This document shows, piece by piece, positions 15,288 through 53,635 of a stretch of 64,000 bases of DNA. Source of the DNA: Nitrosopumilus sp. (GTDB taxonomy: Archaea > Thermoproteota > Nitrososphaeria > Nitrososphaerales > Nitrosopumilaceae); NCBI GenBank assembly GCA_965214775.1, contig OZ243974.1, positions 1,920,001 through 1,984,000 on the forward strand. The letters are read 5' to 3'. The notes under the pieces are model-generated. The model saw nothing but the letters and a program-made list of their open reading frames with translations. It was not told where the DNA came from and ran no database searches. Each line of letters opens with the position of its first letter. The first letter of the stretch is position 1. The position numbers were made by a program, and so were the translations under genes.

Positions 15288-15995
15288 CTATGGGAGATAT
15301 CGTTTTATATCGAATCCTCTTTCCACCAGTTTTTCAAATGTTTGAGGCTTGATGCATACAAGTACATTGTTGTTACGTTCAAATAATTCAAGTCCGTCAT
15401 TGCAGTGTATCTTGTTTGATGGAATCCCAAATTCACTTGGCTGAATTTTTGGAGAAGTATGTTTGCCGATGATTCTTTTAGCAATTTCATATCTGCCTTC
15501 GCCTGCAAGTACGATAGAGTCAGTCATATTTTTACCTCCAATATCTAAAGTTGCCTTTCCATTGTCTCCTTTTTCATATATTCGTAAAACCAAATCTTGA
15601 TAGTCATACCTAGTGATATCATTACACATGTTCATGCCAATTCCCAGATTTTTGTCTTCATGATGGCTTTTGTCTCCAACCAGCCAAACGTTTCCTACGT
15701 TGAAATTTCCTATTATGTTTCCAGTGTTAATACTTGCCCACGGATTATTTTGTAAAAACAGTCGAATGAGATAGTCTTCTTCCAACACATTTCTTCCTTC
15801 TTCATAAGTAAATTCTAATCCCTCACAATCCCGTTTGTATTCACATGAATTGAGTAACTCATTTGGATACTTTGAATGGTACTCGCATGCCTCAGTTTGT
15901 TTAGGGGATGTCGCTTCTTCATCACGCAACTCGGCAAAAATCAGCGTACTTGGTACAAGCAATAATAAAAAAAGAAAAAAAAGAAGATATCTCAA
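15288..15995 (-). CDS. Secreted hypothetical protein with Nitrosopumilus-type C-terminal motif
   Basis: Signal peptide; ends SPKIQ...GI...C...CIKPQTFEKLVERG. Confidence 0.65.
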   Translation of the reverse strand: MRYLLFFLFLLLLVPSTLIFAELRDEEATSPKQTEACEYHSKYPNELLNSCEYKRDCEGLEFTYEEGRNVLEEDYLIRLFLQNNPWASINTGNIIGNFNVGNVWLVGDKSHHEDKNLGIGMNMCNDITRYDYQDLVLRIYEKGDNGKATLDIGGKNMTDSIVLAGEGRYEIAKRIIGKHTSPKIQPSEFGIPSNKIHCNDGLELFERNNNVLVCIKPQTFEKLVERGFDIKRYLP

Positions 15996-16048
15996 GTCTT
16001 TCCTACTATCCCTAACATACTTTATATTTTATCGTATGTGATAAACTT

Positions 16049-16169
16049 CAGTCTTCCCAGAAGTTCCCAGAAAAACGGCCCCACATTTGACACAATTCAG
16101 ATTATGATGCCTGCAGATCCGCATGCAGCCGTCTGCACTGCCATGAGTCAGTTACATCTGTGAAGACTG
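16049..16169. mobile_element. MITE family A copy
   Basis: CAGTCTTCCCAGAAGT...ACATCTGTGAAGACTG. Confidence 0.8.
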
Positions 16170-16380
16170 TAAACTTGGAATATCTGCCGCCTTGAGAACA
16201 AGTTGGTTGGTCGCAGAAGCCTGAATCAGCAAGACCTATGTGCATTCCATACACAGTGAAATCTCCTCTAATTATTTTTCCAACCGGGGAACCGCTATCA
16301 CCGGGACATTGATCATATCCAGAGTAGGCATAACCAATTCCCACTGCCGATACTGCACCCACATCATATCCGTAGAGACC
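16170..16380 (-). pseudogene. Trypsin-like (S1) serine protease C-terminal fragment
   Basis: CPGDSGSPV...VYGMHIG motif with no N-terminal half; truncated by a MITE. Confidence 0.45.
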
Positions 16381-19554: not shown

Positions 19555-19652
19555 GCCGGGGTCGCCTAGCCTGGTAGGGCGCGCGCCTGGAAATCATTTA
19601 CCATAAAGCGCGTTCTCGCAAGGGAACGGGAGTTCGAATCTCCCTCCCGGCG
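19555..19652 (+). tRNA. tRNA-Ser(GGA) with 14-nt intron (19593-19606)
   Basis: Cloverleaf: GCCGGGG/TCCCGGC acceptor, CGCGC/GCGCG anticodon stem, long variable arm, GGGAG TTCGAAT CTCCC; TATA-like ATATATAT upstream. Confidence 0.93.
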
Positions 19653-19993: not shown

Positions 19994-21328
19994 TCACTCC
20001 TCATCCTCCTTGAGTTTGGCCGCATCCCCAAAGGAAACCCTGAGTGGCCCATGCCTACCAATTCTCCTTGCAGCCTCGCCTTTTTGCGTTATGGAATATC
20101 TTACGTTTTTGCCCGTTCCTGTCTTTTCTATAAGATTCCACGAGTACAGAGACTTTATGCCTTTTGTTATGGTGCCTCTGTTTCTCTTGGTTTTTGCAAT
20201 CAACTCCTTTGGATCGGATGACTTTTTGCTCAGATGGTTGAGGATCTTCATCTCAATCCCTGTCGGCTCTCTGATCTTGGTTGATTCGAACTTTTCCAAG
20301 TCATTCAGTATCACCTGCATGCCATTTCTTGCCCGCGTCCTTTGTATTGCGCGATAAGAATGCTCAAGCATAAGGTACAGGTTGGGAACATACATGTTGA
20401 CAATTGCCTCTATGACCTCGTCTGGAAATATGCTCTGTGCGATTTTCATTGCACGTGACTCGTTTGGTTCTACGTTTGATATTCCAAGCAACAGCCTGGC
20501 ATAGAGAATTCTTTTGAATTGATCAACTGTTGTGGGCCCTTCAATTTTTTGAGCCTGAGAGAGTCTTCCCAACGATTCTATTGTCTTTTTTTCGATTGAC
20601 TGGCCATATGTGTGAGACAAGGAAATAATCGAGCGCTTGCCCTGAAACCACCCCTGATTTCCATCAAAAAATTCTGACAGCATTGTGTCGTTTGGAACTT
20701 TGTCAAGCTCATCCATCACAAAAACAGGATGAATGTCTGACTCTGTCAGCTTATCAACAATGAAATCGACTGCAATTTTTGGTTCAATGTTTTTGTCTAT
20801 CAGCAGACTGCTCTCTCCATCTTCTCCTATCCCCAATTTATTCAGCAGTGTCGCTAATGCTTTTCTGGCTGCATGTGAGCCGACTGCAACCGGTGGAAAG
20901 ACTAGTCCCAACGCAGAGACGGCCGATGCTGCAATCCAAGGAACATGGGAGCCAACGGCTGATTTTACCTTGCCATGTTTGCTCTCCAAAGAGCCCGCAG
21001 ATATTAATCCGGACAAGACTGCACGATAGAATTTATCGGCAAGCTCAGACTGGTTTGAAACGCTGTTTGCCCCAACAACTTCGACAATTACAGGCAGGAA
21101 CTTTCTGCCGGGACTTCGCAAGCCGTGCCACAGGACAGCCTGCATCATCGTTGTCTTGCCAATTCCCCTTACGCCGTATATCGACACGCTTCTGCCGTGC
21201 TCAAAGACCTGCGTTGCAAGCTCCTTTGGAGTCTCATCGATGTCCTGGTACAGCAATCCAAAAAGTTCGTCATCATATCTGAGAAGCCAGGATGTAACAT
21301 GTTGTTGGGCAGCTAGCAGACTGTTCAT
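19994..21328 (-). CDS. P-loop AAA+ ATPase with C-terminal winged helix (archaeal ATPase / Orc1-Cdc6-like architecture)
   Basis: GVRGIGKTT, FVMDELDK, C-terminal wHTH (ELIAKTKRNRGTITKGIKSL...RYSITQKG). Confidence 0.75.
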   Translation of the reverse strand: MNSLLAAQQHVTSWLLRYDDELFGLLYQDIDETPKELATQVFEHGRSVSIYGVRGIGKTTMMQAVLWHGLRSPGRKFLPVIVEVVGANSVSNQSELADKFYRAVLSGLISAGSLESKHGKVKSAVGSHVPWIAASAVSALGLVFPPVAVGSHAARKALATLLNKLGIGEDGESSLLIDKNIEPKIAVDFIVDKLTESDIHPVFVMDELDKVPNDTMLSEFFDGNQGWFQGKRSIISLSHTYGQSIEKKTIESLGRLSQAQKIEGPTTVDQFKRILYARLLLGISNVEPNESRAMKIAQSIFPDEVIEAIVNMYVPNLYLMLEHSYRAIQRTRARNGMQVILNDLEKFESTKIREPTGIEMKILNHLSKKSSDPKELIAKTKRNRGTITKGIKSLYSWNLIEKTGTGKNVRYSITQKGEAARRIGRHGPLRVSFGDAAKLKEDEE

Positions 21329-21371
21329 TTTTTATGCCTCCATTGACCCGTCCAGATTTAAGGTGCTGATC

Positions 21372-22642
21372 GGCGTTGTCCGGAATTTTTCCAGAAATCT
21401 ACCGATAAGCTTATAGATCATAAGCGCAGGATGCGACAACCTTATGGATCATAGGATCGACGTCCCCGTATCAATGAAATCAAAGACCAACAAGAAGGAA
21501 TCCAAGAAGGAATCCAAGAAGGAATCCAAGAAGGAATCCAGCAAGGCCAGCAAGAAAAAAAAGTCAGAGTACACGAGACCTCCGGAATACTATGCCGAGT
21601 ACGAGGAAAAAAGGAGAGAGGACAGCAAGAGGTGCGGCATCGGAATCAAAAAGATCCGCAAGATCCTCCTGTCCCTCCTCCATAACACAGAGCAAGAGGA
21701 TGAAATTCCCTATCTTCTGTGCGTACTCGACATGGAGTACCGCGGAAACTCGTATCGCAGGCACGTCGAATACATGGAGTCGAATCCTGGTTCAACTAAC
21801 ATGTACGGGCTCAAAAAGGTTCCGGCCAAGTCGACACTGCATGATGCAGCCGTAAGGATAGCTGCCTGGGACAAGTCGGTGCTAAGATCGGTACTCTCAG
21901 AACAGGCAGGCGCAGACGCCAAGGGAACGCTGCTTGGCGACTCTAGCGGTTTCTCCATAATGAGATACCACACATGGGAGGACGCAAAGAAGGGCGTCAT
22001 ATCCAGGCAGATGTTTGCCAAGCTGCACATACTGTTGGCCCCGCACGGCAAGATTGCCGCCTGCGAGGTGACGCCGGGCGAATTCCATGATTCCCCGGTG
22101 TTCCGTGACGAGCTGCTGCCGCAGGTTCCCAACGGCACAGGACACGTGATCCTGGATGCCGCATACGACTCGTATGAGAACTGCAGGGTCATAGCCGACG
22201 GAGGCAGAACCCCAGTGATATGTCCGCGTACAGGATATACGGTTCACGGGTTCAACGCCCGCTCCAAGATGCTAAGATGGCACAAAAAGGACCCCGAGGG
22301 ATTCGAGAAGACGTACCACCAGCGCAGCCTCGTTGAGTCGGCCTTCTCGTCGATAAAGGCAAGGTTTGACTCCACGGTGCGCGCCATGTCGCTTCCGATG
22401 CAGTCGCTCAGGCTTACCCTCAAGGTATTCTGCTACAATCTGGTCAGCTAGGATCCATAATGCCGGTACGGTGGAATCGTCCGGCTAGCGGATGCTATGC
22501 AGTATGACGTCAAAACACGGGCCATAACTGCACAATGCGGGCCGGAGTGCGGATTCGTCTCTATGTTTGCAGTCATTGCGCCATGATTTTGTACAAATCT
22601 CCCCGGAAATCACGTCCTAAAATCACGATTCCGGACAACGCC
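21372..22642 (+). mobile_element. IS5-family element (IS903-like group), 9-bp TSD
   Basis: TIRs GGCGTTGTCCGGAAT / ATTCCGGACAACGCC; GTGCTGATC duplicated at 21363-21371 and 22643-22651. Confidence 0.9.
21444..22451 (+). CDS. IS5-family transposase
   Basis: GDSSG, KLH, HDSP, LDAAYD, YHQRSLVESAFSSIK. Confidence 0.92.
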   Translation: MDHRIDVPVSMKSKTNKKESKKESKKESKKESSKASKKKKSEYTRPPEYYAEYEEKRREDSKRCGIGIKKIRKILLSLLHNTEQEDEIPYLLCVLDMEYRGNSYRRHVEYMESNPGSTNMYGLKKVPAKSTLHDAAVRIAAWDKSVLRSVLSEQAGADAKGTLLGDSSGFSIMRYHTWEDAKKGVISRQMFAKLHILLAPHGKIAACEVTPGEFHDSPVFRDELLPQVPNGTGHVILDAAYDSYENCRVIADGGRTPVICPRTGYTVHGFNARSKMLRWHKKDPEGFEKTYHQRSLVESAFSSIKARFDSTVRAMSLPMQSLRLTLKVFCYNLVS

Positions 22643-22955
22643 GTGCTGATCAAATAATATTTATATATCAACACCTCTATTTGTAGGTGTTAATATTTAA
22701 GTTTGATATAATGAGGGAACTGGGAAGTTTACGGTAGATGATTCTCTCTGGGAAATGTAGGTAGATCTAATAAATAAAAAATAGTTACAAGGTTCTGTGT
22801 AATCTGCGTTTGGTATTTTGCCGTGCTCACTGTCGTTTGGCAGGATTTTATGAATGGGACTGTTAAGTCAGTAGGGATCCGGGAGCGGGCCAGAGACAGC
22901 GCGCCGCATCGGTGCCGGGAGGCGCAGAACCTGCCAGGATCCGGGACGTGCAGGA

Positions 22956-23420
22956 TCAGCCACGGGCAGGCACGCCGCCCATCTCGGCGTAAAGCCCCTC
23001 GTTTCTGGCGCCGGCATGCCAGTGCATCATGCCCAGCGCCCACAGCGCCCCGGCGGATACGGCAAACCACGATCCTGCAGGCTCGTAGGGGATAGAGTAC
23101 AGGACGGCAAGCGGGATGACGATTATGACTACGAGCATCTCGGCCGAGACGTGGACGGGGACCGCAGCAGAATAGCCGTACCTGCAGAGAAACGCAAAGA
23201 GCGGCGAGGCCTCCATTGCAGATACGGCCCGGGCGTCTCCAAAGAGCATGGTGCTCTTGACGTCCCGGAACATCCCGACGCTGTACACCATGCATCCCGG
23301 GATCAGGACGGCGGCAAGGAGGTCGTCGGGTATCGTCGTCGACGCGGCAAGGGACGCGCAGAAGAGGGACGCCAGGACTGAAAAATAAAGCGGCCGGCCA
23401 AAAAATCCGGGTCGGCTCAT
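22956..23420 (-). CDS. Multi-TM membrane protein (DUF5658-like D..T...E..P motif)
   Basis: Start MSRPGFFG overlaps the upstream stop (ATGA); four hydrophobic segments; DVKST...EASPL. Confidence 0.6.
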   Translation of the reverse strand: MSRPGFFGRPLYFSVLASLFCASLAASTTIPDDLLAAVLIPGCMVYSVGMFRDVKSTMLFGDARAVSAMEASPLFAFLCRYGYSAAVPVHVSAEMLVVIIVIPLAVLYSIPYEPAGSWFAVSAGALWALGMMHWHAGARNEGLYAEMGGVPARG

Positions 23421-23744
23421 TTGGGGGTCTCTCGTATCATGGGAGACATTGGTTTCCGGAAGCCCCTGCGCTCGGAGGGGGGCTGGCTCCAGGACGGTAC
23501 GTGCGCGCCGCGATGTACGCTCAGCATCATTATGCCTATGACGATGGCAGCTATGATCACGAGGCGCACTGCCCACATCAGTATGTCAAAGAGCTCCCGT
23601 ATGCCGTCGCCTATGTCGTCGCCGAGCGCGGCTGGGGCGTTGAACAGACAGTCCTCTGCGGAGAGGTCTGCGCCTCCGGCGGGATCAGAACAGTCGACAC
23701 CGGTAACGGTAACTATCAGCGTCGGGGCAAGAAAGACAATGACG

Positions 23745-25176
23745 TAGTTAATTCATAAAAAAACGAACAATTTTGACAACTGCTTTTGATCCAAACATTA
23801 AGATCAGGCAAACCATCGCACATGCATGGGAAAACAGGCAGAATTTGTGGCATCAAGGGACAAATTCCTGGGCAAGCAAAGCACTCACGTCTTCGCAAGG
23901 CGTACTAGACCCGACAGTATGGAATACGACAGTTGTTGTTGCTGCAGTAGTTAATTCGTGCATGGGGGGTTTGACATACTGCCACACAAGACCCGACAGT
24001 ATGGAATACGACAGTTGTTGTTGCTGCTGCTGCAGTAGTCAGCCCATCAAATATCGGAACATCTTTACCGGTAGGATCTCTCCACTGGCAAACATCTTCC
24101 GCACGGACTGCTCCATCTCATCAAGCGTATCAAACATCTTGGCAGACAGCCTCCGCTTTATCTCCCTCCACTGTATCTCTACAGGATTGAGCTCCGGCGC
24201 GTACGGCGGCAGGTACTCCAGTATTATCTCGCCCTTGTACTTTTCCAGCATCTCCCTTACGCCGACAGACTTGTGGTATGACGCATTATCCAGGAATATC
24301 AACACCTTTCCGTACTTTTCGTGCACCTTTTCCAAAAAGTCGCAAAAGCTGTCGGTGTTGGTCTTGTCATAGAACATATAGTAGAATATGTTAACTGCCA
24401 GCACGCCGAACATGTACCGGCGCTGCCGTGACAGCGATACGGGCGCCGTGACGCTCATGCCGCGCCTGAGCCACCCGTGTTTGGGGCTGTTTGAGGTCTT
24501 TTGTATGGATGACTCGTCTTCTGCCAGTACCGTATACCCTTGCGCCTCCTTTTCCCGTATCAGCTCCTGGGATGCCTCCTTGAACTCGTTCTGCTTTTGT
24601 TTTGAGACGGCCTTTGGGTTCTTTGGCCTCGGCTTCCTCCATGAGAACCCAAGCTCGCGTGCCAGCAGCCGCGTGCCGCTCTTGCTGTATTCTATGCCGA
24701 ACTTCTTTTTGATGTGCCGTCTCATCAGGCCCGAGTCCCACAGGCTGCTCTCAAAACCGCACTCCTCGGATCCTGACTTGAGATCCGCCGCAAGCTGTTT
24801 CAGCTGCGACTCACTCAGCTTGTGCTTGCGTCCCCTGCCTGGCCGCTCGTGCCTTGCACGTATTCCCTCGTCCTGTGCGCGGATGAGCCACTTGGATATG
24901 GTGGAATGTGCCCGGTCGAGGTTCTTTGCTATCTGTTCCACACCAAGGTCGTCCTTGCGCTGCATGTATGCAAGCAGCCTGTCGCGCTTTCTCTTGTCTG
25001 TCTCCTTTTTGTACGCCTCGTGCAGGTAGGAGCGTGACGTATTTGGCAGGAATTTGCTTCCTGATGCTACGAATTCCTTTCTCTGTCTGTCCATGCATAT
25101 GCGTATTCCTTGCCTGATCTTAATGTTTGGATCAAAAATAGTTGTCAAAATTGTTCTTTTTTTTATATGTTGACTA
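23745..25176 (-). mobile_element. IS630-family composite insertion
   Basis: Transposase 24039-25148; 23745-23905 is a diverged inverted copy of the element's 5' end; about 43 bp internal duplication (23907-23949 vs 23989-24037). Confidence 0.85.
24039..25148 (-). CDS. IS630-family transposase
   Basis: HTH, LAEDES, FLDNASYH, LPPYAPELNPVEIQW. Confidence 0.95.
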   Translation of the reverse strand: MTTIFDPNIKIRQGIRICMDRQRKEFVASGSKFLPNTSRSYLHEAYKKETDKRKRDRLLAYMQRKDDLGVEQIAKNLDRAHSTISKWLIRAQDEGIRARHERPGRGRKHKLSESQLKQLAADLKSGSEECGFESSLWDSGLMRRHIKKKFGIEYSKSGTRLLARELGFSWRKPRPKNPKAVSKQKQNEFKEASQELIREKEAQGYTVLAEDESSIQKTSNSPKHGWLRRGMSVTAPVSLSRQRRYMFGVLAVNIFYYMFYDKTNTDSFCDFLEKVHEKYGKVLIFLDNASYHKSVGVREMLEKYKGEIILEYLPPYAPELNPVEIQWREIKRRLSAKMFDTLDEMEQSVRKMFASGEILPVKMFRYLMG

Positions 25177-25335
25177 CGGCGGCGATTATCGCGCTCATGA
25201 TCATGCCCTGGTACTTGCCTATCGACTCGGAGTCCTCTTTGCGTTTCTCAAGCATACTGGGCAAATAACAGACAGTATTTAATCCCCAAATCGGGTTGCG
25301 GGGCGCACTTTTAACGTAATGCGCGCTTTGAACGC

Positions 25336-25956
25336 ATGACGTTTGCGCTTGACATAGTCAATGTCGTGGCACATGCCGACTGCGGCAGGAGGATAGACAT
25401 AGACAAACTCATAGTCCACGGCGGCGCCGTGAAGGATCTTGACACGGAGGCGGCAAAGTACTGCTTTGAGGATCCGTCCTGCGACGACGGGACACGGCAG
25501 ACCACGGTCAGCGTGTTTGCTACGGGGAGGCTGCTGTGCGTGGGGGCCAACAGCATAGAGCGGGCGCGAGGCCACACGAGGAAGGTCCTTGAGATCATAG
25601 GGTCGCCGGATACCGAGGTAAAGGTGCACATGATAGTCCTCAACGGGACCATCGAGGGCGACGTCGACGTGCTGTCAAAGATGGGCAGGCTTGAGCGCCA
25701 CTGGAACGTCAGGTTCGAGTCAAACTTTCTCAGCGGCGTGATACTCGTCCAGGGCGGCGGCATATACATGGACATATTCCCGCACTCAGAGCCGGTGCGG
25801 CTGGGGCTGCGGGGTCCGGACATGGAGACAATCCATGACGCGGTCGGCAAGCTGGAGTCGGCGCTGTTCGGCGTGGATGACGCGGTGCCGGCCTCGGGGG
25901 CGCCGGGAATCAGGGCGGACGGGATCCGGACACGTCACGGACAGGACCGGACTTAA
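25336..25956 (+). CDS. Divergent TATA-binding protein homolog
   Basis: Two TBP repeats: IVNVVAHADC...VSVFATGRLLCVGANSIERA and VHMIVLNG...FESNFLSGVIL...DIF. Confidence 0.8.
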   Translation: MTFALDIVNVVAHADCGRRIDIDKLIVHGGAVKDLDTEAAKYCFEDPSCDDGTRQTTVSVFATGRLLCVGANSIERARGHTRKVLEIIGSPDTEVKVHMIVLNGTIEGDVDVLSKMGRLERHWNVRFESNFLSGVILVQGGGIYMDIFPHSEPVRLGLRGPDMETIHDAVGKLESALFGVDDAVPASGAPGIRADGIRTRHGQDRT

Positions 25957-25983
25957 AAGGAAACGGACCGTTTTAAAGCGGAT

Positions 25984-26625
25984 ATGAGCTGGTCAGAACG
26001 GCAGTCAGAGCGGTGGCATGATGTCTGCGACGAGTTAGGAATACTTGTGATCATGATGGGCATGTTCATAATGTTCGCCTTGCTGATTATCATCGTGATC
26101 CTCGCTGGTGCCGTCTTCATAGTGGCATTCGGCCACATTGAGCTGCCAGAGGACAACTCCATGGTGCTGAATTCGTTATGGGTGTCGCTTGCGTCGGCCG
26201 TGTGTCTGGGAGTCGGAGCGGCAGTCATTGGCGTAGGCAGACTGGCGGCATGGATTTCCAGGCGGAGGGGATCCGGACACGTCACGGACAGAACCGGGCT
26301 TAAGGAATTAAACCACTGGGATGCGGACATGAGCTGGTCAGAACGGCAGTCAGAGCGGTGGCATGATACCTGGTGCGAGACCGGAATGGCGTTGATCATC
26401 ATAGGCGCGCTTTCACTGTCCATCCCGCTGGCTGTCTTAGCGATCCTCCTTGGCGCCCTCTATCTGACTCTGTTCTTTGTGCCTGTGCTTGCCGGGATCG
26501 CGCTAATGTTTGCAGGCATGGCCGGCATCGAAGCGGGAGACATGGCGGCACGGGGTTCCGGAAGGAAGAGGCGGCCGGCAGAGACAGGCCACGAAAGGAA
26601 TCGGACCGTTGGGACGCGGACATGA
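25984..26625 (+). CDS. Membrane protein made of two tandem MSWSERQSERWHD-2TM modules
   Basis: Module starts at 25984 and 26329, with DNA-level repeats. Confidence 0.7.
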   Translation: MSWSERQSERWHDVCDELGILVIMMGMFIMFALLIIIVILAGAVFIVAFGHIELPEDNSMVLNSLWVSLASAVCLGVGAAVIGVGRLAAWISRRRGSGHVTDRTGLKELNHWDADMSWSERQSERWHDTWCETGMALIIIGALSLSIPLAVLAILLGALYLTLFFVPVLAGIALMFAGMAGIEAGDMAARGSGRKRRPAETGHERNRTVGTRT

Positions 26626-26969
26626 GCGAGCCAGGACGGCAGTCCGGGCGGTGGCATGACACCTGGCGCAAGACCGGAGATATTGTGATCATCATAGGCA
26701 TATTTTCGGTGTCCGTCCCGCTGGCCTGTTGCGTGATCCTCCTTGGTTTAATCCCGCTGGCAGTATCCGGTCTCATTGAGCTGACAGAGGAGAATGCATC
26801 CCCGCTGGTGGATTTGACCGAATGGTCTACGTTGGTGGTGTTATCGTGCATGGGAGGCGGCGCGGCCATTGCTGGCATAGGCAGGCTGGCGGCATGGACT
26901 TCCGGTCGGATCGGGAACCCGCAAGGCAGGTCAGGACGCGCTGGAACGGAGTCGGCGGGTCGGACATGA
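26622..26969 (+). CDS. Third paralogous 2-TM module (MSEPGRQSGRWHD)
   Basis: ATGA overlap with the previous gene; same motif and TM pattern. Confidence 0.7.
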   Translation: MSEPGRQSGRWHDTWRKTGDIVIIIGIFSVSVPLACCVILLGLIPLAVSGLIELTEENASPLVDLTEWSTLVVLSCMGGGAAIAGIGRLAAWTSGRIGNPQGRSGRAGTESAGRT

Positions 26970-27466
26970 CTGGGCGTTCGGAGCTTCCGGCATTCCTGAT
27001 CGGAATGCATGACTGTGTGGAGGGCATGGGCAGGCTACAAAAGTACGCGTTTCTTTCTGCAATGCAGATAAAGGAGCTGCGCAGTGTCGGGTTCTACGAT
27101 GACTGGAAGGCGAGCAACTTCGGACCGTTCAGTGCAGGGCTGGCAGGCGACATCAGGGAGGCGCTGGGCAGAAGCCAGATAACAAGGCACACGATCACAA
27201 ACAGCTACGGCTTCAGGGTGGACAGGTTCGCAGTAACCGGGCATGGCAGGAAAATCTTTGAGCGGTTAAGGCACGAGCACGCAGGCCTGTACAACAAAAT
27301 CGTAGCAATCACTGGAAGATACCAGGAGTACTCCCTGGCGCGGCTGCTGCAGGATGTCTACTACCGGTACCCGCAGTATGCAAGTGCAGGCACGACAAAG
27401 GCCGGCAGGGGGATTTACGAGTCGGACTCGTATCTCAACACGGAACACGACGGATCCGGCCTCTAA
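26966..27466 (+). CDS. Panacea/SocA (DUF4065)-like antitoxin domain protein
   Basis: GMGRLQKYAFL, WKASNFGPFS, LLQDVYYRYP pattern. Confidence 0.7.
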   Translation: MTGRSELPAFLIGMHDCVEGMGRLQKYAFLSAMQIKELRSVGFYDDWKASNFGPFSAGLAGDIREALGRSQITRHTITNSYGFRVDRFAVTGHGRKIFERLRHEHAGLYNKIVAITGRYQEYSLARLLQDVYYRYPQYASAGTTKAGRGIYESDSYLNTEHDGSGL

Positions 27467-28787: not shown

Positions 28788-28879
28788 CAGGTGAATCCCA
28801 CTTCCTCCACAATGCTGCGTGTATGACTCCACACGCCGTGTGATTTTCGCCTTAAATACATACCATAATGTTTTACTCA

Positions 28880-29548
28880 ATGAACTTGAGTAACTACAAG
28901 ACAAGACGGAAAAGGACGCTGGCAGTGTCGGCAGTATTGGGGATGGTCATCGGGCTAGGAATTACGGCCGCAGTCGGCGCCGGCGTATACTATACGTACC
29001 AGGAGCAGGCTGACTTGTTCTCCACATCAGCGCAGATCGAGGTTAGAAACCTGAACGCCATAAGATCCGGCGATACGCTGACCATAACTGCAAACGTGAA
29101 GAATGTCGGATCGACTGCGCTTACTGACGTGTATCTGGCCAATATAGGAGCAGGTGGTGAATTTTCAATCACAACAGACAACCCAAACGATAACATAGAA
29201 ATCAGATCTGGGACTCATACAGCTTTTACTGAGGTGAACACATCTTATGACGGCGGGGGTGATTTGTGTGATGGGCCCCTTGCAGGTGCGGATTGTGATC
29301 CTGCAGATGAAGGAACTCTCGAAGTTTCAGGTGTGTCATATAGTTCGCCAGATGGAGGCGCATCACTTGACGGCGGGGGAACAAACGCCATTAGGCTGAC
29401 GGTTACCATGGATGGACTCACTCCACCCGACAATAACATATCAAACACGGTGACAATCTCTGACAGACTCACATTACAGCTGGGATTCACATCAGGTGAC
29501 GACGAATTCCTCTCAGACGTCTACAATACCCGAGTCCGTCCGGGTTAA
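28880..29548 (+). CDS. Archaeal type IV pilin (class III signal peptide), candidate major pilin
   Basis: RRKRTLA/VSAVLGMVIGLGITAAVGAGV, NVKNVGS; own TTAA box 28 nt upstream and T-tract downstream. Confidence 0.8.
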   Translation: MNLSNYKTRRKRTLAVSAVLGMVIGLGITAAVGAGVYYTYQEQADLFSTSAQIEVRNLNAIRSGDTLTITANVKNVGSTALTDVYLANIGAGGEFSITTDNPNDNIEIRSGTHTAFTEVNTSYDGGGDLCDGPLAGADCDPADEGTLEVSGVSYSSPDGGASLDGGGTNAIRLTVTMDGLTPPDNNISNTVTISDRLTLQLGFTSGDDEFLSDVYNTRVRPG

Positions 29549-39028: not shown

Positions 39029-40887
39029 CTGTCATGGCAGTAGTAGCAGTAGTGGTGACAGCCGTCCTGCTGTGCGCTGCCGCGTCCCTTGCATTGCCTG
39101 CCGCATACGCCTCGTGCCAGAGCATAGAGGAGTGCAAGTATGTCAACCTGTTCGGAGAGCGCAAGGCCGAGCTGTTCCTGCCACAGGAGACCATCATACT
39201 GACAGGCGGCACGCATCACATCCTCATAGCAGGAACCGTCCCGGAGGGGGTCTCCGGGGTTCCCGTGACAATCGAGATTGAGGCCCCGGACGGCACCGTC
39301 GCGACCTCGGCGGTCCGCGCAACGACAGACGGCGTGTTTCAGCTGCTTCACGGCATCGAGTCCACGCGACACATGGCAGGCATACATGCGGTATACGTCT
39401 CGTACATCACAGGCGAGGACATCGAGACAAGTCTAAAGTCGGGCATATTCAACACCGTGCTGCAGGGGAAGGCAGATCACACCGTAATAATACTGGACGG
39501 ATCAAGCGGGTGCCAGAAGGACGACTCGTGCTATATAGACGGCGACCTGAAGGTGACGGCAGGGCAGACAGTCCAGTGGATAAACGAGAGCGGCCAGGCC
39601 CACAAGATACGGGCGGCGGCAGTAGGAACGGCAGGCGGGCCCATATCTGCAGTCGAATCGTCTGATACCGGGGGATTCTTTGACACGGGCATAATACCGC
39701 CGGGAGGCGATGCCATACTGGAATTTGACGGAGAAAGCATGCGGGGGATATACTCGTGCATGTTCCATCCGTGGATGGAGGCCACCATAAGCGTCACAAA
39801 GCCGGCCGAAAAGGCAGTCTCCATAACCCCCGATACGGTGGTGGACCTCAAGGAGGACGGGCCGTCTGCGACGTCAGTCAGGGGAAGCGTCCTGTTTGAG
39901 GGCGGCACCGCATATCATACGTCGGGGGACAGGATCGAGATTGACATAATATACGCCGGATTCTCCACGCGCGGCTCGCAGGTATCGCTGTCCTCTCCGG
40001 ACGGGTCCGAAATTACCGACAGGTTTGTCGCAAGCGAGGGGAAAAAGTCATCGTGGAGCATGATAACGCAGCCGACATGGGAGCCGGGGAAATACACGCT
40101 AAACGTAGATCCCCGGGGCAGCGTTCCCCGGACGCAGCTGACACTCCACATCGGACAGCACGAGTCCATCCGGTGCGAGGGCATACCTGCAGGAAACCTG
40201 ACTGCCCACGGGCCAAAGAACTCCCCGTGCTATGCGTCCACAGTAGGCAGGGTGGTGGATCATGACACCCTGACCATAGGCGGCAAGAAGGTGACGCTGG
40301 AGGCAGTCAGGATAACTGCCGGCAATTCCACCGAAAAAAGGAATGCAATGGATACGATTGCAGGAATCTGCCAGGAGGGCAGCATAGTGGTGGTGGATGC
40401 CGGAAACGGCATCATTCCGTCAAGGAACAGCAGGACGGTCACCGGTGCCGTATACTGTGAGGAGAACCCAAGGACTCTCAACGAGCAGATGATGGATGCC
40501 GGCATCGCATCACTTGACATGAAGGCGTGCGAGACGACGGAGTTTGCGTGGGGCAGGTGTCCTCCGCCTCCCCTTTCTCCGGAAGAAACTGCAAAAGACC
40601 GCAATGCCGCAAATGACGAAAACCCGGGCTCCCTGGACAACTGCATGATAGCGCTTGCCACTCGCGGCACGCCGCTTGCAGAGAGCGTGCAGCTGCTGCG
40701 GGAGTACCGGCAGGAGGCCGCATCCACGGTCTACGGGGCGGCCCTGGTGGATGCGGCCCATGCGGCATACTATGTCGTATCCCCGTCGATCACAGAAGCC
40801 ATAAGGGGAGGATACATCCCAGGCGAGGCGGCATATGCGGCAGTATACGTGCCTGTCCTGGTAGGTGGTGCGCTTGCTGCGCGGTGA
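39025..40887 (+). CDS. Secreted cupredoxin + degenerate SNase + CFI-box-CTERM-like protein
   Basis: AGQTVQWINESGQAH...YSCMFHPWM; VVDHDTL; CMIALATRGTPLAESVQLLREYR. Confidence 0.8.
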   Translation: MTVMAVVAVVVTAVLLCAAASLALPAAYASCQSIEECKYVNLFGERKAELFLPQETIILTGGTHHILIAGTVPEGVSGVPVTIEIEAPDGTVATSAVRATTDGVFQLLHGIESTRHMAGIHAVYVSYITGEDIETSLKSGIFNTVLQGKADHTVIILDGSSGCQKDDSCYIDGDLKVTAGQTVQWINESGQAHKIRAAAVGTAGGPISAVESSDTGGFFDTGIIPPGGDAILEFDGESMRGIYSCMFHPWMEATISVTKPAEKAVSITPDTVVDLKEDGPSATSVRGSVLFEGGTAYHTSGDRIEIDIIYAGFSTRGSQVSLSSPDGSEITDRFVASEGKKSSWSMITQPTWEPGKYTLNVDPRGSVPRTQLTLHIGQHESIRCEGIPAGNLTAHGPKNSPCYASTVGRVVDHDTLTIGGKKVTLEAVRITAGNSTEKRNAMDTIAGICQEGSIVVVDAGNGIIPSRNSRTVTGAVYCEENPRTLNEQMMDAGIASLDMKACETTEFAWGRCPPPPLSPEETAKDRNAANDENPGSLDNCMIALATRGTPLAESVQLLREYRQEAASTVYGAALVDAAHAAYYVVSPSITEAIRGGYIPGEAAYAAVYVPVLVGGALAAR

Positions 40888-42660
40888 CCCGAAGAGGCCG
40901 GCACCCAATACGCGCCTGTGCATATCTGCAGGATTCATAGCGACGCTGGCACTTGTCACGGCGCTATCTGAGGGCACAGGCGAGGACGTCATGCTTGCCG
41001 GATTCCTTGCCGTCTGTGCCGTCGTCCCGCTGCTGATACCTAGAAGAAAGAGGACATACGCGTCCTCTGACGGGACCGTAAGGGCCAGAGCGCCGACATC
41101 GTGGTCAGTATGGACCGTATTCATAATCATGGAAAAGCACATGCCCGCACTCAAGCGGCTCCGGCTCCACAACGAGCGCATGCTGGCCCGCATAGTCCCT
41201 GCCACCGGCACCACGTTTGACATAGAGCGCGCAGCGACCGTTTCCACCAGGCTCTCGCTGCTGCTGATACTGCCGTCGGCAGTCCTCGGTGCCATGGCCG
41301 GCATGCACATCCACTTTGCGTTTTATGGCGCAGCGGCAGTCCCGCTGGTCACGTTCTTTGTCCCCCTTGTCCAGCTGCGCTTTTCTGTTCTTGAGCGCAA
41401 GACCCGCATCGAGGAGGAGACGGCGTACTTTCTGTGCTTTGTCAATACAGTCCAGACGGTAGGCATGTCGCTGTACATGGCATTTGACTCGATACGGGGC
41501 AAGGGGATATTTCCCGGGATAGAGCGCGACGCGCACGAGATAGTAAAGCGCGTGGAGATGCTCGGCATGACGCAGAACGACTCCCTTGACGTGTACGCAA
41601 AGAATCATCCGTCACCGTCCTTTGCGGCGTTCGTATCCGGATACCTCTCCAAGATCGCCTCTGTCGGAGACGTTCCGGCGTATACGGAGTCCAAGGCAAA
41701 GTTCTTCTTCAACGAGTATATTGCCTCGTGGGAGCGATACGAGAAGAGCGCCCAGGAGATATTCAGCGCCGTAATCATGATCGCCATACTGCTCCCGATG
41801 ATGATGGCCTTCAACTCGATTGTCGGGACGGGATCCTCGTCGGGCCTCATGATAATGCTGGGAATCATCGTCTCACCCGTGGTCTCGGTAGTCATGATCT
41901 CCATGCTGAACTCGTCGCAGCCTGCAACGGGCAACATGCTGGCGGTCTCGTATCCCTCGATCGCCGCAGGTGCCGGCATAGGGCTCACGCTTGCAGTCGC
42001 CGGAGTGAGCATCCCGACGGTCATAGGACTGTCGGCCTTTGTAGGGGCCCTTCTCAACGCCATATTCACGAGGGGCAGGATGATGGAGATAACGAGGATA
42101 GACGACATGATGCCCGAGTTCATGCAGGACGTGACCGAGCAGAGCAGGGTAGGCAGCAACGTAAACCAGATAGTGCTGTACCAGTCGGGAAAGGGCCTGT
42201 ACGCCAGGCAGTTTGAGGAGATACTGGGGCGGCTGGCGGCCGGAATACGGAGCGGGATGAGGATGGAGGAGGCATCAAGGAAGATACGCACAAAGTCCGT
42301 CAACCTGAGGTTCATACTGTTCCTGCTGTCGCACGTCCAGTCTACCGGAGGCGGATCATCTGAGATATTCCTTGCAATCACGGACTTTATCACAAAAATA
42401 CAGCAGACCAAGATCAAGATATCAAAGGGGCTGGGGATGCTCACGATTATAGTGTATGCTTCCCCGTTCATCATGTTTGGCATATCGCAGGTCATGATCA
42501 CCATGTTCTCTGACGCAGGCTCTGCCCCCATCGGCATGACAGTCGACTCTGACATCCCGTCTGCCTTTGGCTCCGTAAGCGACGATGTAAAAAACGGCAT
42601 ACAGCTGATGACTGTCATGACCACGATACCGATGGGGGTGGTTGCCGCAAAGATCTCAAG

Positions 42661-44296
42661 GTATGAGGTCACCTATTCCCCCACATTAGGTCAAATATTG
42701 ATGACGATGCCGATCCTTATACCATGATCGCGTATACTAGACATTATGAAAGGTCAACCCTCCACATACTGTGAGATCGAGGCATCTATAGCATCGTCGA
42801 CGGAGAGGATACAGAGTCTGGAAAAGGGCATCAAGGAACGTGACAACATCATCAAGGAACAGGGCAATGTCATCAAGGAACGTGACACGACCATTGAGAA
42901 ACTAAACAATATAATCAAGGATCAGGGCAGCAGGCTCCGATACTATGAGAACGAGAACTCGCCCCCGTCGGCAGACTCGCTTGCGTGGAAGGAGCAAAAG
43001 GCACAGAGGAAAAAGGAGAGGGCCCGATCCGATGCTGCAGCCGGGAATAACGGCACCAGGAATAACAGGAAAAAGCCCGGCGGCCAAAAGGGCCACAAGG
43101 GCGTATCGCGCGTCCACCGGCCCACCCGGGTACAAAGGCACTACTTTCCGGGCGGACAGGCGCCAGAGTGCTGGTGCGGCACCCCCACGAAGATCATGAA
43201 CAGGTCGCAGACACGCGACATGATTGGATTTGAGATCAAGGCGATTGAGACTCGCCACGAGTCGCAGAGGGCAGTATGCCCAAAATGCGGCACGTATCAT
43301 ATTGCCCCCAACGGCCTGCCCCGATGCGGCAACTACGACACGAGCGTGGTCACAGCCGTCACCAAGCTGCGCAGCGAGGGCGTTCCATACAGCAGGATCC
43401 CAGGCATCCTGTCAGATATCACGGGTGTGGACATGTCAAAGTCAACTGCAATCAACAACGTGGGGCGCGTCTGCGAGGCCGCAAAGGCGCCTGCCGAGGC
43501 CATCGCAAAGGAGGTAAAGAGCTCAAAGACCGTCTGCATAGACGAGACGGGGATCAACCTGGCAGGCAAGACGGGGTGGGTGTGGACCATACTGTCAGCA
43601 GCAGGCATACTCATGATATACAACAATACAAGGAAGGCCCTGGTTCTGGACCAGTACATGAGCGGGTACAAGGGCGTCGTCACATCGGACGGATATCCCG
43701 CATACAAGAGGTTCGATCCGGGGGGAAGGCACCAGCGGTGCTGGGCGCACGAGCTGCGATCCCTCCTGTATGGTTCGCAGAAAAAGGACGCCCCGCTGTT
43801 TGCAGGGATCCTGTACCGGCAGGGGCAGCAGCTGTTCAGGGACGCCAAGACGTGTCTGGAAGGGTGGGACAAGCTGTCCCCCGAGGATCTCCTAGATCTT
43901 GAGGAGAGGACGGGGATAAGGGCCGCCGACGGGCTGATGGGCCGGCACTCGCCGGAGCTGCGCCGGCGGTTTGAGACCAACATGCGCAACGTCCTGTTCG
44001 GATACAGGGATACGCAGGACGAATCGTTGAAAGCTCTTGTCAGGCGGATGTACAATGCCCTGCCTGGCCTGTTTGCATTCCTGGAATACGAGGACGTCGA
44101 GCCCACCAACAATTCTGCAGAGCGGGCGCTGCGCCCCGTCGTACTGCAGGACAAGATAAGCGGCCAGATCAAGGGCGGCCTGGTCTGGATGGACAGGTAC
44201 GGATGGCTCAATACATGCACCTCGACGTGGAAGCTGCAGGGCAAGTCCATCATGGTTGAGGTAGCCAAAATAATTCAGGGGTAGGTGACCTCATAC
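42661..44296 (+). mobile_element. IS66-family element (single ORF), 8-bp TSD
   Basis: TIRs GTATGAGGTCACCTA / TAGGTGACCTCATAC; ATCTCAAG at 42653-42660 and 44297-44304. Confidence 0.93.
42746..44284 (+). CDS. IS66 transposase
   Basis: KKPGGQKGHKG, IDETG, SDGYPAY, QRCWAH, PTNNSAERALR. Confidence 0.95.
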   Translation: MKGQPSTYCEIEASIASSTERIQSLEKGIKERDNIIKEQGNVIKERDTTIEKLNNIIKDQGSRLRYYENENSPPSADSLAWKEQKAQRKKERARSDAAAGNNGTRNNRKKPGGQKGHKGVSRVHRPTRVQRHYFPGGQAPECWCGTPTKIMNRSQTRDMIGFEIKAIETRHESQRAVCPKCGTYHIAPNGLPRCGNYDTSVVTAVTKLRSEGVPYSRIPGILSDITGVDMSKSTAINNVGRVCEAAKAPAEAIAKEVKSSKTVCIDETGINLAGKTGWVWTILSAAGILMIYNNTRKALVLDQYMSGYKGVVTSDGYPAYKRFDPGGRHQRCWAHELRSLLYGSQKKDAPLFAGILYRQGQQLFRDAKTCLEGWDKLSPEDLLDLEERTGIRAADGLMGRHSPELRRRFETNMRNVLFGYRDTQDESLKALVRRMYNALPGLFAFLEYEDVEPTNNSAERALRPVVLQDKISGQIKGGLVWMDRYGWLNTCTSTWKLQGKSIMVEVAKIIQG

Positions 44297-51578: not shown

Positions 51579-51654
51579 AGCGGGGTGGGGAAGCCAGGCC
51601 AATCCCGGCGGGTTCATTGCCCGCAGACCGGCAGTTCAAATCTGTCCCCCGCTA
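51579..51654 (+). tRNA. Initiator-type tRNA-Met(CAT) with atypical anticodon loop
   Basis: AGCGGGG/CCCCGCT acceptor (A1-U72), GGGA/TCCC D-stem, GCGGG/CCCGC anticodon stem, loop TTCATTG, GGCAG TTCAAAT CTGTC T-arm, A73; TTAA box 30 nt upstream. Confidence 0.85.
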
Positions 51655-51761
51655 TCATAGGTGCCAGCTTCCTACACCTTCCAGCGGGAACCGGCTCCCG
51701 CTGACTTGTAAGTCCCAAAATCCAGCTATGCCTTTAAATTATAAGACTCGTGGGCTCATCA

Positions 51762-52517
51762 GTGAGAACTAGGCTAATTGCTTGCGAGCATGCAAGCACG
51801 ACAATACTTGACGGGGAGACGGTCTGCAGGAAATGCGGCGTAGTCCTCGGCGAGCAGCGCGAGCAGGTGCCTGCCGGCGAGCGTGAGGCTGCCGGGGCAA
51901 AGTCTACTACAAACATCTATGAGAGGCATGTCACAGGCAGCCGGGACATAATTCCGGATACCGACCAGATGAAGTCCCTCCGGCGCTATTCGCACACGAA
52001 CATCTATGACAATGACAGCAGGAAAAAGCTCAGGAACATATCTCGGTTTTCAAACGCATGCGACTCGCTGGGGATCGATGACACCGCTGCAGAGTACGCC
52101 GTAAGGCTGTTCCACGCGGCCCTCAAGCAGAGGGGCGGCGACAGGCGGACAGCCGACGTGGCTGCCTGGTCTATCTACAAGAGCTGCAAGAACCACGGCA
52201 TCCCGATCGACGGCAACGTCATAGCCGACAACGTAAGGCGGCAGTTCGGGCGGATGCGGATAGGCGACATTATGAGCATCGCGTATGACATGATGGACAT
52301 CCCCGTCAAGGACAACCCCGACGGCGTCATGAAGTACCACTTTCGGCTGGTCCTCAAGAGGCTGACAAAAAAGCTCCCCCGCATGGACGACAGGCAGTAC
52401 TCAAGAAGGCAGGCAGATGCCTGGAACCTGTACAATACGCTATTTCTGTCCGGCTCCTACGACAAGAGGGCAAAGAACGCAGTATGCAAGGCCTTTGGAA
52501 TAAGGAGGAACACATGA
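51762..52517 (+). CDS. Divergent transcription initiation factor B (TFB/TFIIB) homolog
   Basis: Zn ribbon CEH...GETVCRKCGVVL; cyclin fold CDSLGI...A.RLF...VAAWSIYKSCKNHGIP; second repeat degenerate. Confidence 0.8.
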   Translation: MRTRLIACEHASTTILDGETVCRKCGVVLGEQREQVPAGEREAAGAKSTTNIYERHVTGSRDIIPDTDQMKSLRRYSHTNIYDNDSRKKLRNISRFSNACDSLGIDDTAAEYAVRLFHAALKQRGGDRRTADVAAWSIYKSCKNHGIPIDGNVIADNVRRQFGRMRIGDIMSIAYDMMDIPVKDNPDGVMKYHFRLVLKRLTKKLPRMDDRQYSRRQADAWNLYNTLFLSGSYDKRAKNAVCKAFGIRRNT

Positions 52518-53635
52518 AGGCCTCAGAGGAAAGGGTGATGACAAGCCGCATCGAGGAGCCCATATACCAGGCAACCGTCATCATATCATCAAACGTCAGG
52601 CTTCTTGCAAAGGCCATCGCAGAAAAGGGAGTCCCTCCTACCAGGCCGATCCTCGCAAAGCTTGACGGCAGGTACTATCCTGTCGGAAACATAGAGACCG
52701 TCATGGCTGCCATGGAGGCCGGGCTGAAGAGCATTGCATGTTCTGTCATACCCGTAAAGTCAAAGACGGACATGATAAACCTGCACCTGCTGCATACGCG
52801 CTCTAGCACCTACAACCCGGTAAGGTTCACCAGGATGATAAACGAGGCCATAAGTGAGAACGTCGAGATTGACATCGGAAACCTGCCAAACTCGTTTCGG
52901 AGGAGGATCAGTCTTGTCCCCGACGTCGAAAAGCGGCTTGACGACTTTGTGGCGGACATGGGCAGGAAGATGATCGAGGTCCCGTCCATGCTGCACATAG
53001 TGGCCCCCCTCTCCCGCCTTGAGCCCGAGGATCAAAAGGCGGCGCTGAAGATGGTCCTCAACTATACGACGATGCGCAAGCAGGCGTACCCGCCAGACCA
53101 GATAACGCTCAACCAGATCTTCGAGCAGTACCGCTACAAGGACTCTGGAGGAAACGGCGATGATGGTGATGACGGTGACGGCGGGCCCGGTGCCTCCGGG
53201 GGCGATGACAATGCAGGGGAGCCCGGGGCAAATCCTAGGTCAAAGCCGGCGCAGGATCCTGCCGGTGACGATGACGTCGAGATGGATCTTGCAAAGAAAA
53301 GGGGATCTGTCGGCGTCCGGATAAAGCCAAAGTCCGACTCGATAGAGTACCAGTGCAAGTGCAGCAGGAAGATACTCGTGAACCTCAAGAACGGGATGGT
53401 CCAGAGGATGGAGGATAATGGGGCAAACATACTTGCCGTAAACGACGATGAGAACACGTCAGTCTGCTACATGCTCCCGGGAGAGCTGGCATCACAGCTG
53501 GAGCTTGACGTCTCTGACATCATAAACTGCTACCTCATAGGCGGCAAAAAATCCGAAAAGGCCGCCCTGATCACCAAGAGAAAGATCCCAAAGAAGGTGC
53601 AGGCCGAGATCTCAAGGGCGCTGAGGTCCGCCTGA
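52514..53635 (+). CDS. ParB/Srx N-terminal domain protein
   Basis: LAKAIAEKG...PIL...GRYYPVGN...AAMEAGLKSIACSV; coupled to the TFB stop (ATGA). Confidence 0.65.
   Translation: MKASEERVMTSRIEEPIYQATVIISSNVRLLAKAIAEKGVPPTRPILAKLDGRYYPVGNIETVMAAMEAGLKSIACSVIPVKSKTDMINLHLLHTRSSTYNPVRFTRMINEAISENVEIDIGNLPNSFRRRISLVPDVEKRLDDFVADMGRKMIEVPSMLHIVAPLSRLEPEDQKAALKMVLNYTTMRKQAYPPDQITLNQIFEQYRYKDSGGNGDDGDDGDGGPGASGGDDNAGEPGANPRSKPAQDPAGDDDVEMDLAKKRGSVGVRIKPKSDSIEYQCKCSRKILVNLKNGMVQRMEDNGANILAVNDDENTSVCYMLPGELASQLELDVSDIINCYLIGGKKSEKAALITKRKIPKKVQAEISRALRSA

Follow-up and report, generated by a model that had tools for sequence, protein, structure and literature searches.

Archaeal viruses appear to exploit their hosts' TATA-binding protein (TBP) as well as their transcription factor B (TFB), and the general view is that viruses and plasmids of archaea rely on these two host factors and steer them by means of small repressors or activators (review, PMC5569661). 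All thaumarchaeal integrative and conjugative elements (ICEs) described encode homologues of TFIIB beside VirB4, TadC, a prepilin peptidase and pilins, the TFIIB homologue usually lying directly upstream of a gene of the ParB-like kind (Krupovic et al. 2019, PMC6563490). In the type IV pilus loci of archaea, no kind of predicted regulator is commoner than the TFIIB homologues (Makarova et al. 2016, PMC4858521). Neither TBP nor TATA is mentioned in the main text of the ICE paper, and TATA is missing from that of the pilus paper, although the supplementary annotation tables of either may list such a gene. Apart from what those tables may hold, no TBP paralogue of an archaeal mobile element is described in the full-text literature searched. 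Here we analyse a TBP-like gene in a 64,000-nucleotide stretch of a Nitrosopumilus sp. genome, hereafter the window (assembly GCA_965214775.1, contig OZ243974.1, forward-strand positions 1,920,001 to 1,984,000). Ammonia oxidisers are already known to have additional copies of TBP and TFB, and to carry TFB homologues on their conjugative-type elements; what appears to be new here, as far as the texts searched go, is a TBP paralogue that travels with the TFB homologue of such an element.

The open reading frame (ORF) encodes a genuine two-repeat paralogue of the TBP fold that is strongly altered. Pfam PF00352 (TBP) matches residues 6–88 only, at 34.5 bits against a cut-off of 22.9, and repeat 2 goes undetected by Pfam alone. 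All 18 members of the family alignment described below do match PF00352 (E ≤ 0.01), and when a profile of this 18-row alignment is compared by hhalign with a profile of 21 canonical TBPs (the two of the host and 19 from relatives), the match has a probability of 98.8 % and an E-value of 1.1e-16. Because it spans family residues 3–181 and TBP residues 6–181, both TBP repeats align; identity to canonical TBPs is 20 % across 164 aligned columns. A phmmer search of PDB sequences ranks archaeal TBPs first (2z8u, E 2e-4). In the AlphaFold2 (AF2) model (mean pLDDT 85.2, pTM 0.77), strands and helices follow one another as in a pair of TBP repeats (S1-H1-S2-S3-S4-S5-H2, twice), with no winged helix-turn-helix (wHTH) or other added domain. 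In a Foldseek search of the PDB with this model, ranks 1–43 among the matches listed are all TBP chains, the best being 1mp9 (E 3e-10), with target-normalised TM-scores of 0.72–0.79 over 183–191 columns among the best-ranked of them. An earlier note on this DNA had called the ORF a TBP homologue, and both the profile comparison and the Pfam, AF2 and Foldseek results bear the call out. Like cellular archaeal TBPs (PF00352), the protein is a two-repeat saddle of about 180 residues without extra domains. Eight NCBIfam TBP models (PRK00394) give only 11–26 bits against cut-offs of 181–330 (best 25.6 versus 255), and with scores so far under the cut-offs it is not an orthologue of the cellular archaeal TBP. 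PHROGs has no family for it. In a fold search of viral models (BFVD), most of the named proteins among the best matches are TBPs from large DNA viruses of eukaryotes, and several top rows are unnamed.

Rep_trans and the archaeal Rep-Arvir proteins, which are initiators in plasmids and viruses, have the TBP fold as well (PMC13107129), and the protein might instead be a rolling-circle initiator of this type, or have a DNA-binding, partition or architectural role. Inoviridae Rep proteins do turn up far down the ranking of viral models by fold (rank 32, TM 0.39), and no replication gene is recognised in the element that carries the gene. We nevertheless regard a non-transcriptional role as improbable, as the top structural hits, aligned across about 185–190 columns, are TBPs proper, and the modelled protein is short and lacks a wHTH or added domain. 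Additionally, neither Rep_trans (PF02486) nor DUF7845 (PF25227) matches even at E ≤ 10, against 18 of 18 for TBP, and the family alignment contains no conserved Tyr column. Among the residues Y, H, C, D, E, K and R, only C16, D34, K41, C68 and R76 reach a conservation of 80 % or higher, each being shared by at least 14 of 17 sequences.

The roles of the TBP residues that read DNA come from crystal structures of TBP on DNA. In canonical TBP, four intercalating phenylalanines are supplied by the stirrup and strand S4 of each repeat, the asparagines of S1 and S1' and the threonines of S5 and S5' hydrogen-bond in the minor groove, and an acidic pair in the C-terminal stirrup is the contact site for TFB/TFIIB. 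We mapped these positions by means of the profile alignment, the model strands and the 18-row family alignment, to whose rows the following counts refer unless another total is given. The window protein keeps two of the four Phe, one of the two Asn and neither Thr. In repeat 1, the S1 Asn (N9; Asn in 17/17) and the S4 Phe (F61; Tyr in 10 and Phe in 8) are retained, while the stirrup Phe is replaced by T37 (Phe in 8, Trp in 1) and the S5 Thr by V69 (Thr in 8). In repeat 2, only the S4' Phe survives (F148; Phe in 10): the S1' Asn has become M99, a position at which no family member has Asn, the stirrup Phe is L132 (Met in 8, Leu in 4, Phe in 4), the S5' Thr is R159 (Arg in 10), and the SGK turn is absent. 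By this mapping, the DNA face is altered mainly in repeat 2.

The same mapping upholds the remodelled DNA-binding face that the earlier note had proposed. The repeat 1 motifs it quoted are present (N9-V-V-A12 and V60-F-A-T-G64), as are D34-L-D-T-E-A-A40, where canonical TBPs have P-[DE]-Q-F-P-G-L, and H98-M-I-V101 in place of Q-N-I-V. Its statement that I147-F-P-H-S-E-P153 replaces FxSGK needs amending, since the SGK turn is indeed lost but the Phe is still there as F148 (canonical L-F-S-S-G-K). Repeat 1 resembles cellular TBP in its S1 Asn, its S4 aromatic residue and a G-x-x-x-C-x-G-A-x-S turn, whereas the protein as a whole departs from cellular TBP in its low identity, its acidity and the replacement of two of the four Phe, one of the two Asn and both Thr. 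Several DNA-facing positions are conserved in the family: K41 (15/18), an aromatic residue at 61 (18/18), Lys or Arg at 65 (16/18), Val, Met or Ile at 101 (18/18) and Met, Leu or Phe at 132 (16/18). Two canonical DNA-packing Leu are polar in the family, with Asn or Ser at 59 and mostly Gln at 146; the window protein has S59 (Asn in 10/18) and D146 (Gln in 9/18). At the positions of the stirrup acidic pair, Asp or Glu is found in 12/18 each, the window protein having E128 and N130, and residue 131 is hydrophobic in most members.

The family is small. A HMMER search over 1.84 billion representative proteins returned 32 proteins at E ≤ 1e-3 and 19 at E ≤ 1e-10, most of the 19 aligning across most of their length with 28–44 % identity. 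The alignment omits P0013 (a 128-aa fragment), P0016 (a partial match) and P0020–P0032, which are weaker matches, mostly to repeat 1 only, and probably ordinary TBPs. A word-indexed protein search found a sole relative, 96 % identical and 182 aa long (P0001), on a 178-kb contig of another assembly. Pattern scans for close relatives confirmed none of 179 matches in genome contigs (with the single protein as query), 56 in viral contigs and 382 in metagenome contigs. In a draw of 400 other genomes from the same taxonomic family, the TBP-like gene occurs in five (G266, G410, G167, G510 and G501) and in 0 of 98 of the same genus, so that it differs from a cellular TBP gene in this distribution as well as in its place on a mobile element. 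A phylum-wide draw found it in 4 of 401 genomes including its own, the three others all belonging to the same taxonomic family; three matches of about 61 bits lie in other families (G115, G137, G148). Among 100 relatives (60 of the same genus, 40 of the same order), no match exceeded 53 bits to the family profile, and the 19 loci fetched from the best of these matches are canonical TBPs, with 298–371 bits to the host TBP. The related elements that carry the gene range from 37 to 67 % GC, and the similarity of the protein has therefore been held through a large compositional change. On these comparisons, we take the gene to be a conserved family member and not a decaying duplicate.

The TBP-like gene sits at the head of a pilin/transfer module, which lies in an island of 55–60 % GC and the main features of which are collected in Table 1. 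From about 22 kb of the window to the genome position equivalent to 68 kb, the GC content is 51–61 %, compared with 47.1 % for the genome, which marks the region as a foreign island. The module opens with a divergent small membrane-protein gene pair, the TBP-like gene, the pilin-like gene and a bPH-domain gene, and continues through several large unknowns (one with an SNase domain) to the T2SSF/TadC gene and the HerA/VirB4/TrwB-type ATPase. A Laminin_G_3 protein, the TFB homologue, a conserved unknown, the prepilin peptidase, an actin/MreB-like protein and a metalloprotease follow. In all five other carriers the TBP-like gene lies beside homologues of the same module with 25–54 % identity, sharing the pilin-like, bPH, SNase-domain and large unknown neighbours; T2SSF/TadC and HerA/VirB4-type homologues are also present in the G410 and G167 loci. 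The pilin-like gene neighbours the TBP-like gene in 6/6 elements.

Table 1 Features of the window and its surroundings. Position 1 is the first letter of the window; positions above 64,000 are the equivalents beyond its right end.
Feature	Position	Strand	Remarks
98-nt tRNA	19555–19652	+	Rfam 40.6 bits; missed by ARAGORN
444-aa protein	19994–21328	-	P-loop NTPase N-terminus, C-terminal winged helix
DDE_Tnp_1 insertion sequence (1.3 kb)	21371–22643		direct 97.8 % copy at 73006–74302, about 51 kb to the right
52-nt inverted match	22716–22767 and 64445–64496		88 %
C-terminal remainder of split membrane-protein gene	23420–23752	-	homologue of intact gene at 15714–16181 of locus L034
IS630-type insertion sequence	23765–25155 (approximate ends)	-	DDE_3 transposase 24039–25148; inverted ends of about 45 nt
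N-terminal fragment MLEKRKEDSESIGKYQ... of divergent small membrane-protein gene	25166–25255	-	first 30 codons, cut off by the insertion sequence
TATA-like box ATTAAATAC	25275–25283	-	20–28 bp before ATG of divergent gene (25255)
TATA-like box CTTTTAA	25308–25314	+	centred about 25 bp before ATG of TBP-like gene; putative leaderless-mRNA promoter
TBP-like gene	25336–25956 (stop codon included)	+	206 aa; ORF listing, Pfam, hhalign, AF2, Foldseek
Repeat 1, residues 3–88	25342–25599	+	still TBP-like: N9, F61, G64 turn, G70-A-N-S kept
Repeat 2, residues 95–178	25618–25869	+	degenerate; F148 and E128 kept
C-terminal tail, residues 183–206	25882–25953	+	lineage-specific, predicted disordered (residues 182–205 in AF2 model)
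Three tandem ~345-bp units	25957–27000		67–70 % identical
ORF with two fused ~345-bp units	25984–26625		
Recurrence of last 43 nt of TBP-like ORF	26261–26303		
Pilin-like protein	28868–29548	+	basic residues then hydrophobic N-terminus, from which the putative pilin identity is drawn; without Pfam match
TadC/T2SSF-type membrane platform protein	40865–42727	+	T2SSF match
IS66-family transposase gene	42746–44284	+	between TadC and ATPase genes
HerA/VirB4/TrwB-type ATPase	44404–47223	+	DUF87, AAA_10, TrwB_AAD_bind
tRNA-Met (CAT)	51579–51654	+	between 784-aa gene and TFB homologue
Compact TFB homologue	51750–52517	+	255 aa; C-x-H...C-x2-C ribbon, cyclin-like region
Conserved unknown	52484–53635		383 aa
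Prepilin (class III signal) peptidase	54257–54958	+	Peptidase_A24
IS110 transposase gene	63071 (start)		

The gene set of thaumarchaeal ICEs (ATPase, TadC, prepilin peptidase, pilin-like protein) is thus found in an element of a thaumarchaeal host, and we interpret the island as an integrated element of the pilus/type IV secretion system kind, conjugative-like, of ammonia-oxidising archaea. The TBP-like gene belongs to this mobile element and not to the host basal machinery. The likeness to the ICEs extends to the kind of host, the VirB4-type ATPase and an element-encoded TFB homologue, and the element shares with ICE and pilus loci the carriage of a basal-factor paralogue within a transfer or pilus locus. 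What sets it apart from those reports of TFB homologues is that a TBP paralogue accompanies the TFB, as it does in 6 of the 15 genomes with this TFB type. One large ATPase is recognised in the element, with no clear VirB4 plus VirD4 pair. A tailed provirus was considered in view of the long genes on one strand and rejected, as no capsid, portal or terminase families were found and TadC, a HerA/VirB4-type ATPase and a prepilin peptidase are found instead. No attachment site or tRNA-derived direct repeat was found flanking the island, only the insertion sequence (IS) copies and the 52-nt inverted match listed in Table 1.

The TFB homologue of the module is supported by several comparisons. It has a weak Pfam Zn_Ribbon_TF match, its nearest ESM Atlas clusters carry TFIIB (0.92), and an hhalign comparison of its alignment with the four TFBs of the host reaches 97.0 % (E 1.2e-10) for residues 7–255 against 9–288. 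A Foldseek search places Brf1, TFIIB and TFB chains first with TM-scores of only 0.2–0.35; the model is poor (pLDDT 60.6), and this search offers weak corroboration of the homology. In a word-indexed search only a 93 % relative was found. The following gene of 383 aa is conserved in related elements and has no ParB match in Pfam. Of the 401 genomes in the family draw, 15 have a strong match to this TFB type (at least 163 bits), including all six with the TBP-like gene, in which both genes are on one contig, 6–56 kb apart. A complex prediction of residues 1–182 of the TBP-like protein with the TFB homologue scored 0.00, 0.31 and 0.01 against a mark of 0.32, had no controls, and gives no verdict.

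As the TBP-like gene is carried together with a TFB homologue, the element probably brings its own promoter-recognition factors. For the TBP-like protein itself, we tentatively favour, at somewhat short of an even chance, an element-specific basal transcription factor or a regulator of the transfer genes. This reading is favoured because the concave-face positions of repeat 1 are constrained and the stirrup keeps much of its acidic character, and because TFB paralogues have been described before in elements and pilus loci of archaea. In such a scheme, the gene would be transcribed by the host machinery from an ordinary TATA-type promoter, and its product would bind element promoter DNA mainly through the TBP-like repeat 1. 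The remodelled repeat 2, more polar or basic through the loss of Asn and the change of Thr to Arg, would make a changed contact, and the DNA would probably be kinked less. The protein would then contact TFB, either that of the element or that of the host, through its partly kept acidic C-terminal stirrup, and the outcome would be that the element has its own switch for the transfer genes. A more specific proposal, that the two proteins form a private orthogonal TBP–TFB pair that reads element promoters in a manner impossible for host TBP, or that the protein is a TBP mimic that captures TFB, seems to us rather unlikely.

A number of observations weigh against an element-specific factor. Repeat 2 is conserved less than repeat 1 across the family (mean top-residue fraction 0.40 versus 0.53), and the window copy is the least DNA-friendly member (T37, S59 and D146, with an isoelectric point (pI) of 5.2). 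The TFB type occurs without a TBP-like gene (E ≤ 1e-20) in 9 of its 15 genomes, from which it follows that the TFB homologue does not depend on the TBP-like protein; in the five of those nine examined, there is no TBP-like match within 190 kb of the TFB-like gene. The promoters of the element seem to resemble ordinary host-type TATA promoters for leaderless mRNAs, and a private promoter motif was sought and is unsupported, the element boxes being host-like. The 80-bp region between the divergent start codons holds both A/T boxes of Table 1, and the same two-box layout is found in G266, the ATTAAATAC box recurring in locus L034. Comparable boxes precede the TBP-like gene in G167 and G410, so that boxes of this kind stand at the same distance in three related elements. 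Several other element genes have (C)CTTAAAT-type boxes 10–30 bp upstream, typically about 25 bp before the start codon. In the host, TTAAAT, TAAATA and TTTAAA are over-represented upstream of genes (from crude gene calls); CTTAAA occurs in 5/30 upstream regions of the element against 29/1729, a small hint of a higher frequency in the element that is confounded by GC and drawn from crude gene calls. Furthermore, no tyrosine integrase (PF00589, the only integrase type searched) was found in 1.40–2.80 Mb of the genome, and the element copy is damaged or at least heavily invaded by IS.

The acidity of the window copy and its loss of canonical residues bear on a second explanation, in which the protein acts as a decoy or anti-factor. 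Binding and kinking of TATA DNA would be lost, with the shape of TBP and the stirrup that binds TFB retained, and the protein would titrate TFB, either that of the host, damping host transcription, or that of the element, keeping transfer genes off until induction. Only two of four Phe, one of two Asn and no Thr are kept, the repeat 2 Asn is lost in 18/18 family members, the pI of the window protein core is far below the 9.4 of host TBP, and D146 lies on the predicted DNA face. Moreover, the stirrup position of the first canonical Glu is kept (E128), and the TBP-like protein is always accompanied by the TFB homologue. A pure decoy, however, needs no conserved concave face, and yet N9, K41, the aromatic residue at 61 and Lys or Arg at 65 are all conserved; in addition, the family spans pI 5.0–9.1, and about half of it is basic (pI 8.3–9.1 in 9 of the 17 members computed). 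The earlier note had suggested an altered specificity, or a dominant-negative or decoy TBP; the TFB homologue in the same module and the conserved DNA-facing positions of repeat 1 lead us to favour a working factor over a pure decoy. Because the window protein is acidic and has lost more of the canonical DNA-reading residues than any other member, the decoy remains a serious rival, especially for this copy, if a rather unlikely one.

The condition of this element copy raises a further explanation, that the family is functional elsewhere and the copy here is an inert passenger, idle within an element that is in decay and full of IS. The small membrane-protein gene divergent from the TBP-like gene, 80 bp upstream of the latter, has been interrupted by an IS630-type element, and both halves are recognisable by comparison with L034. 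The IS66 transposase lies within the transfer module, between TadC-like and HerA/VirB4-type genes that are adjacent in the G410 and G167 elements, and other IS copies lie around, including the two direct DDE_Tnp_1 copies that bracket the island. The absence of a PF00589 integrase nearby and the departure of the window copy from the family consensus at several DNA-facing positions would also fit an idle copy, as would the disordered, lineage-specific tail derived from a neighbouring repeat. Three tandem units between the TBP-like and pilin-like genes, each encoding a small multi-pass membrane protein that starts MSWSERQSERWHD, form an array not seen at this place in the five related elements. 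As the final 43 nt of the TBP-like ORF lie in the repeat of these units, the 24-residue tail derives from them; the 96 % relative stops at residue 182, without the tail. We think an inert copy quite unlikely all the same, because the TBP-like frame and the 80-bp intergenic promoter region are intact and untouched by IS, because the 96 % identical protein keeps 182 open residues in another assembly, and because the large downstream genes of the module are open too. Among the sequencing data listed for positions 25160–26000, none are of RNA, and five DNA-type entries from two studies contain the stretch.

The host genome is a single 2.83-Mb contig. With amoA present and mcrA not found, a methanogen is rejected as the host, which is an ammonia oxidiser. 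Two TBPs (G000:C1:2228395-2228955 and 1561973-1562536) and four TFBs in the genome are canonical; ammonia oxidisers carry 2–5 TBP and 4–11 TFB copies (PMC7554672). A third host TBP paralogue lies outside the window (G000:C1:1708646-1709212, + strand, a 188-aa frame), with a canonical repeat 2 (67.4 bits) and a degenerate repeat 1 (34.4 bits, no QFPG motif), a pattern opposite to that of the window TBP-like protein. A second short TFB-like gene, also outside the window (G000:C1:622481-623053, - strand, a 246-aa frame), matches the TFB profile of the element with 55.7 bits and Pfam TFIIB with 25.8 bits, and may be the mark of another integrated element without a TBP-like gene.

Some further features of the island and its left edge were observed. 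Within the island, a tRNA-Met gene precedes the TFB homologue; in G410 the homologous ORFs are about 50 bp apart, which leaves no space for a tRNA gene there. About 2.4 kb left of the GC shift is a 98-nt tRNA that probably contains an intron, hence the ARAGORN miss, and no repeat of it is found at the right end of the island. The 444-aa protein just left of the GC shift, whose N-terminus has weak AAA_16 and KaiC matches, could serve the element in replication or in regulation.

More distant systems offer partial parallels. Metazoan TBPL1 is not known to bind canonical TATA boxes and still interacts with TFIIA/TFIIB. In TBPL1 (TRF2/TLF), the saddle is kept and the DNA-contacting signature residues are changed, and it is thought to serve distinct promoters (PMC7221094). 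The element protein is likewise a TBP paralogue with the saddle kept and DNA-contact residues changed, but TBPL1 is eukaryotic, chromosomal, of independent origin and without a tie to mobile elements, whereas the element family changes mainly repeat 2. Large eukaryotic DNA viruses carry divergent TBP-like and TFIIB-like factors (PMC12917281, PMC7458399), and, as with poxviral VITF-3, B263R of African swine fever virus and giant-virus TBPs, we find a selfish element with its own divergent factors of both kinds. Those viruses, however, bring their own RNA polymerase, while an archaeal conjugative-type element must use that of the host.

Haloarchaea have multiple TBP and TFB paralogues, some of them extrachromosomal, which have been proposed to serve alternative promoter selection, and the TBPs known from their plasmids are close, canonical proteins with the DNA-reading residues intact. 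Both cases involve multiple TBP and TFB paralogues, but unlike the haloarchaeal plasmid TBPs, the element family has diverged far and goes with a transfer module. The expansion of TBP and TFB in halophiles is also mentioned in a source cited above (PMC7554672).

The interest of this family would be higher if the altered DNA face is functional. If the protein forms an orthogonal pair with TFB, or is a mimic that captures it, the system would be an archaeal counterpart of the sigma or anti-sigma factors of phages and ICEs, and the protein would be the first TBP of a mobile element whose DNA face has been re-engineered. A decoy would represent an archaeal anti-transcription factor of a new kind. 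Should the protein work as an initiation factor, it would provide a natural example of how far the DNA face of TBP can be rebuilt while the saddle is kept, and a way into the control of transfer genes by mobile elements in ammonia oxidisers, which are ecologically dominant and have almost no genetic tools. The gene also shows that, among the additional TBP copies counted for ammonia-oxidiser genomes, some may be mobile-element cargo and not host regulators.

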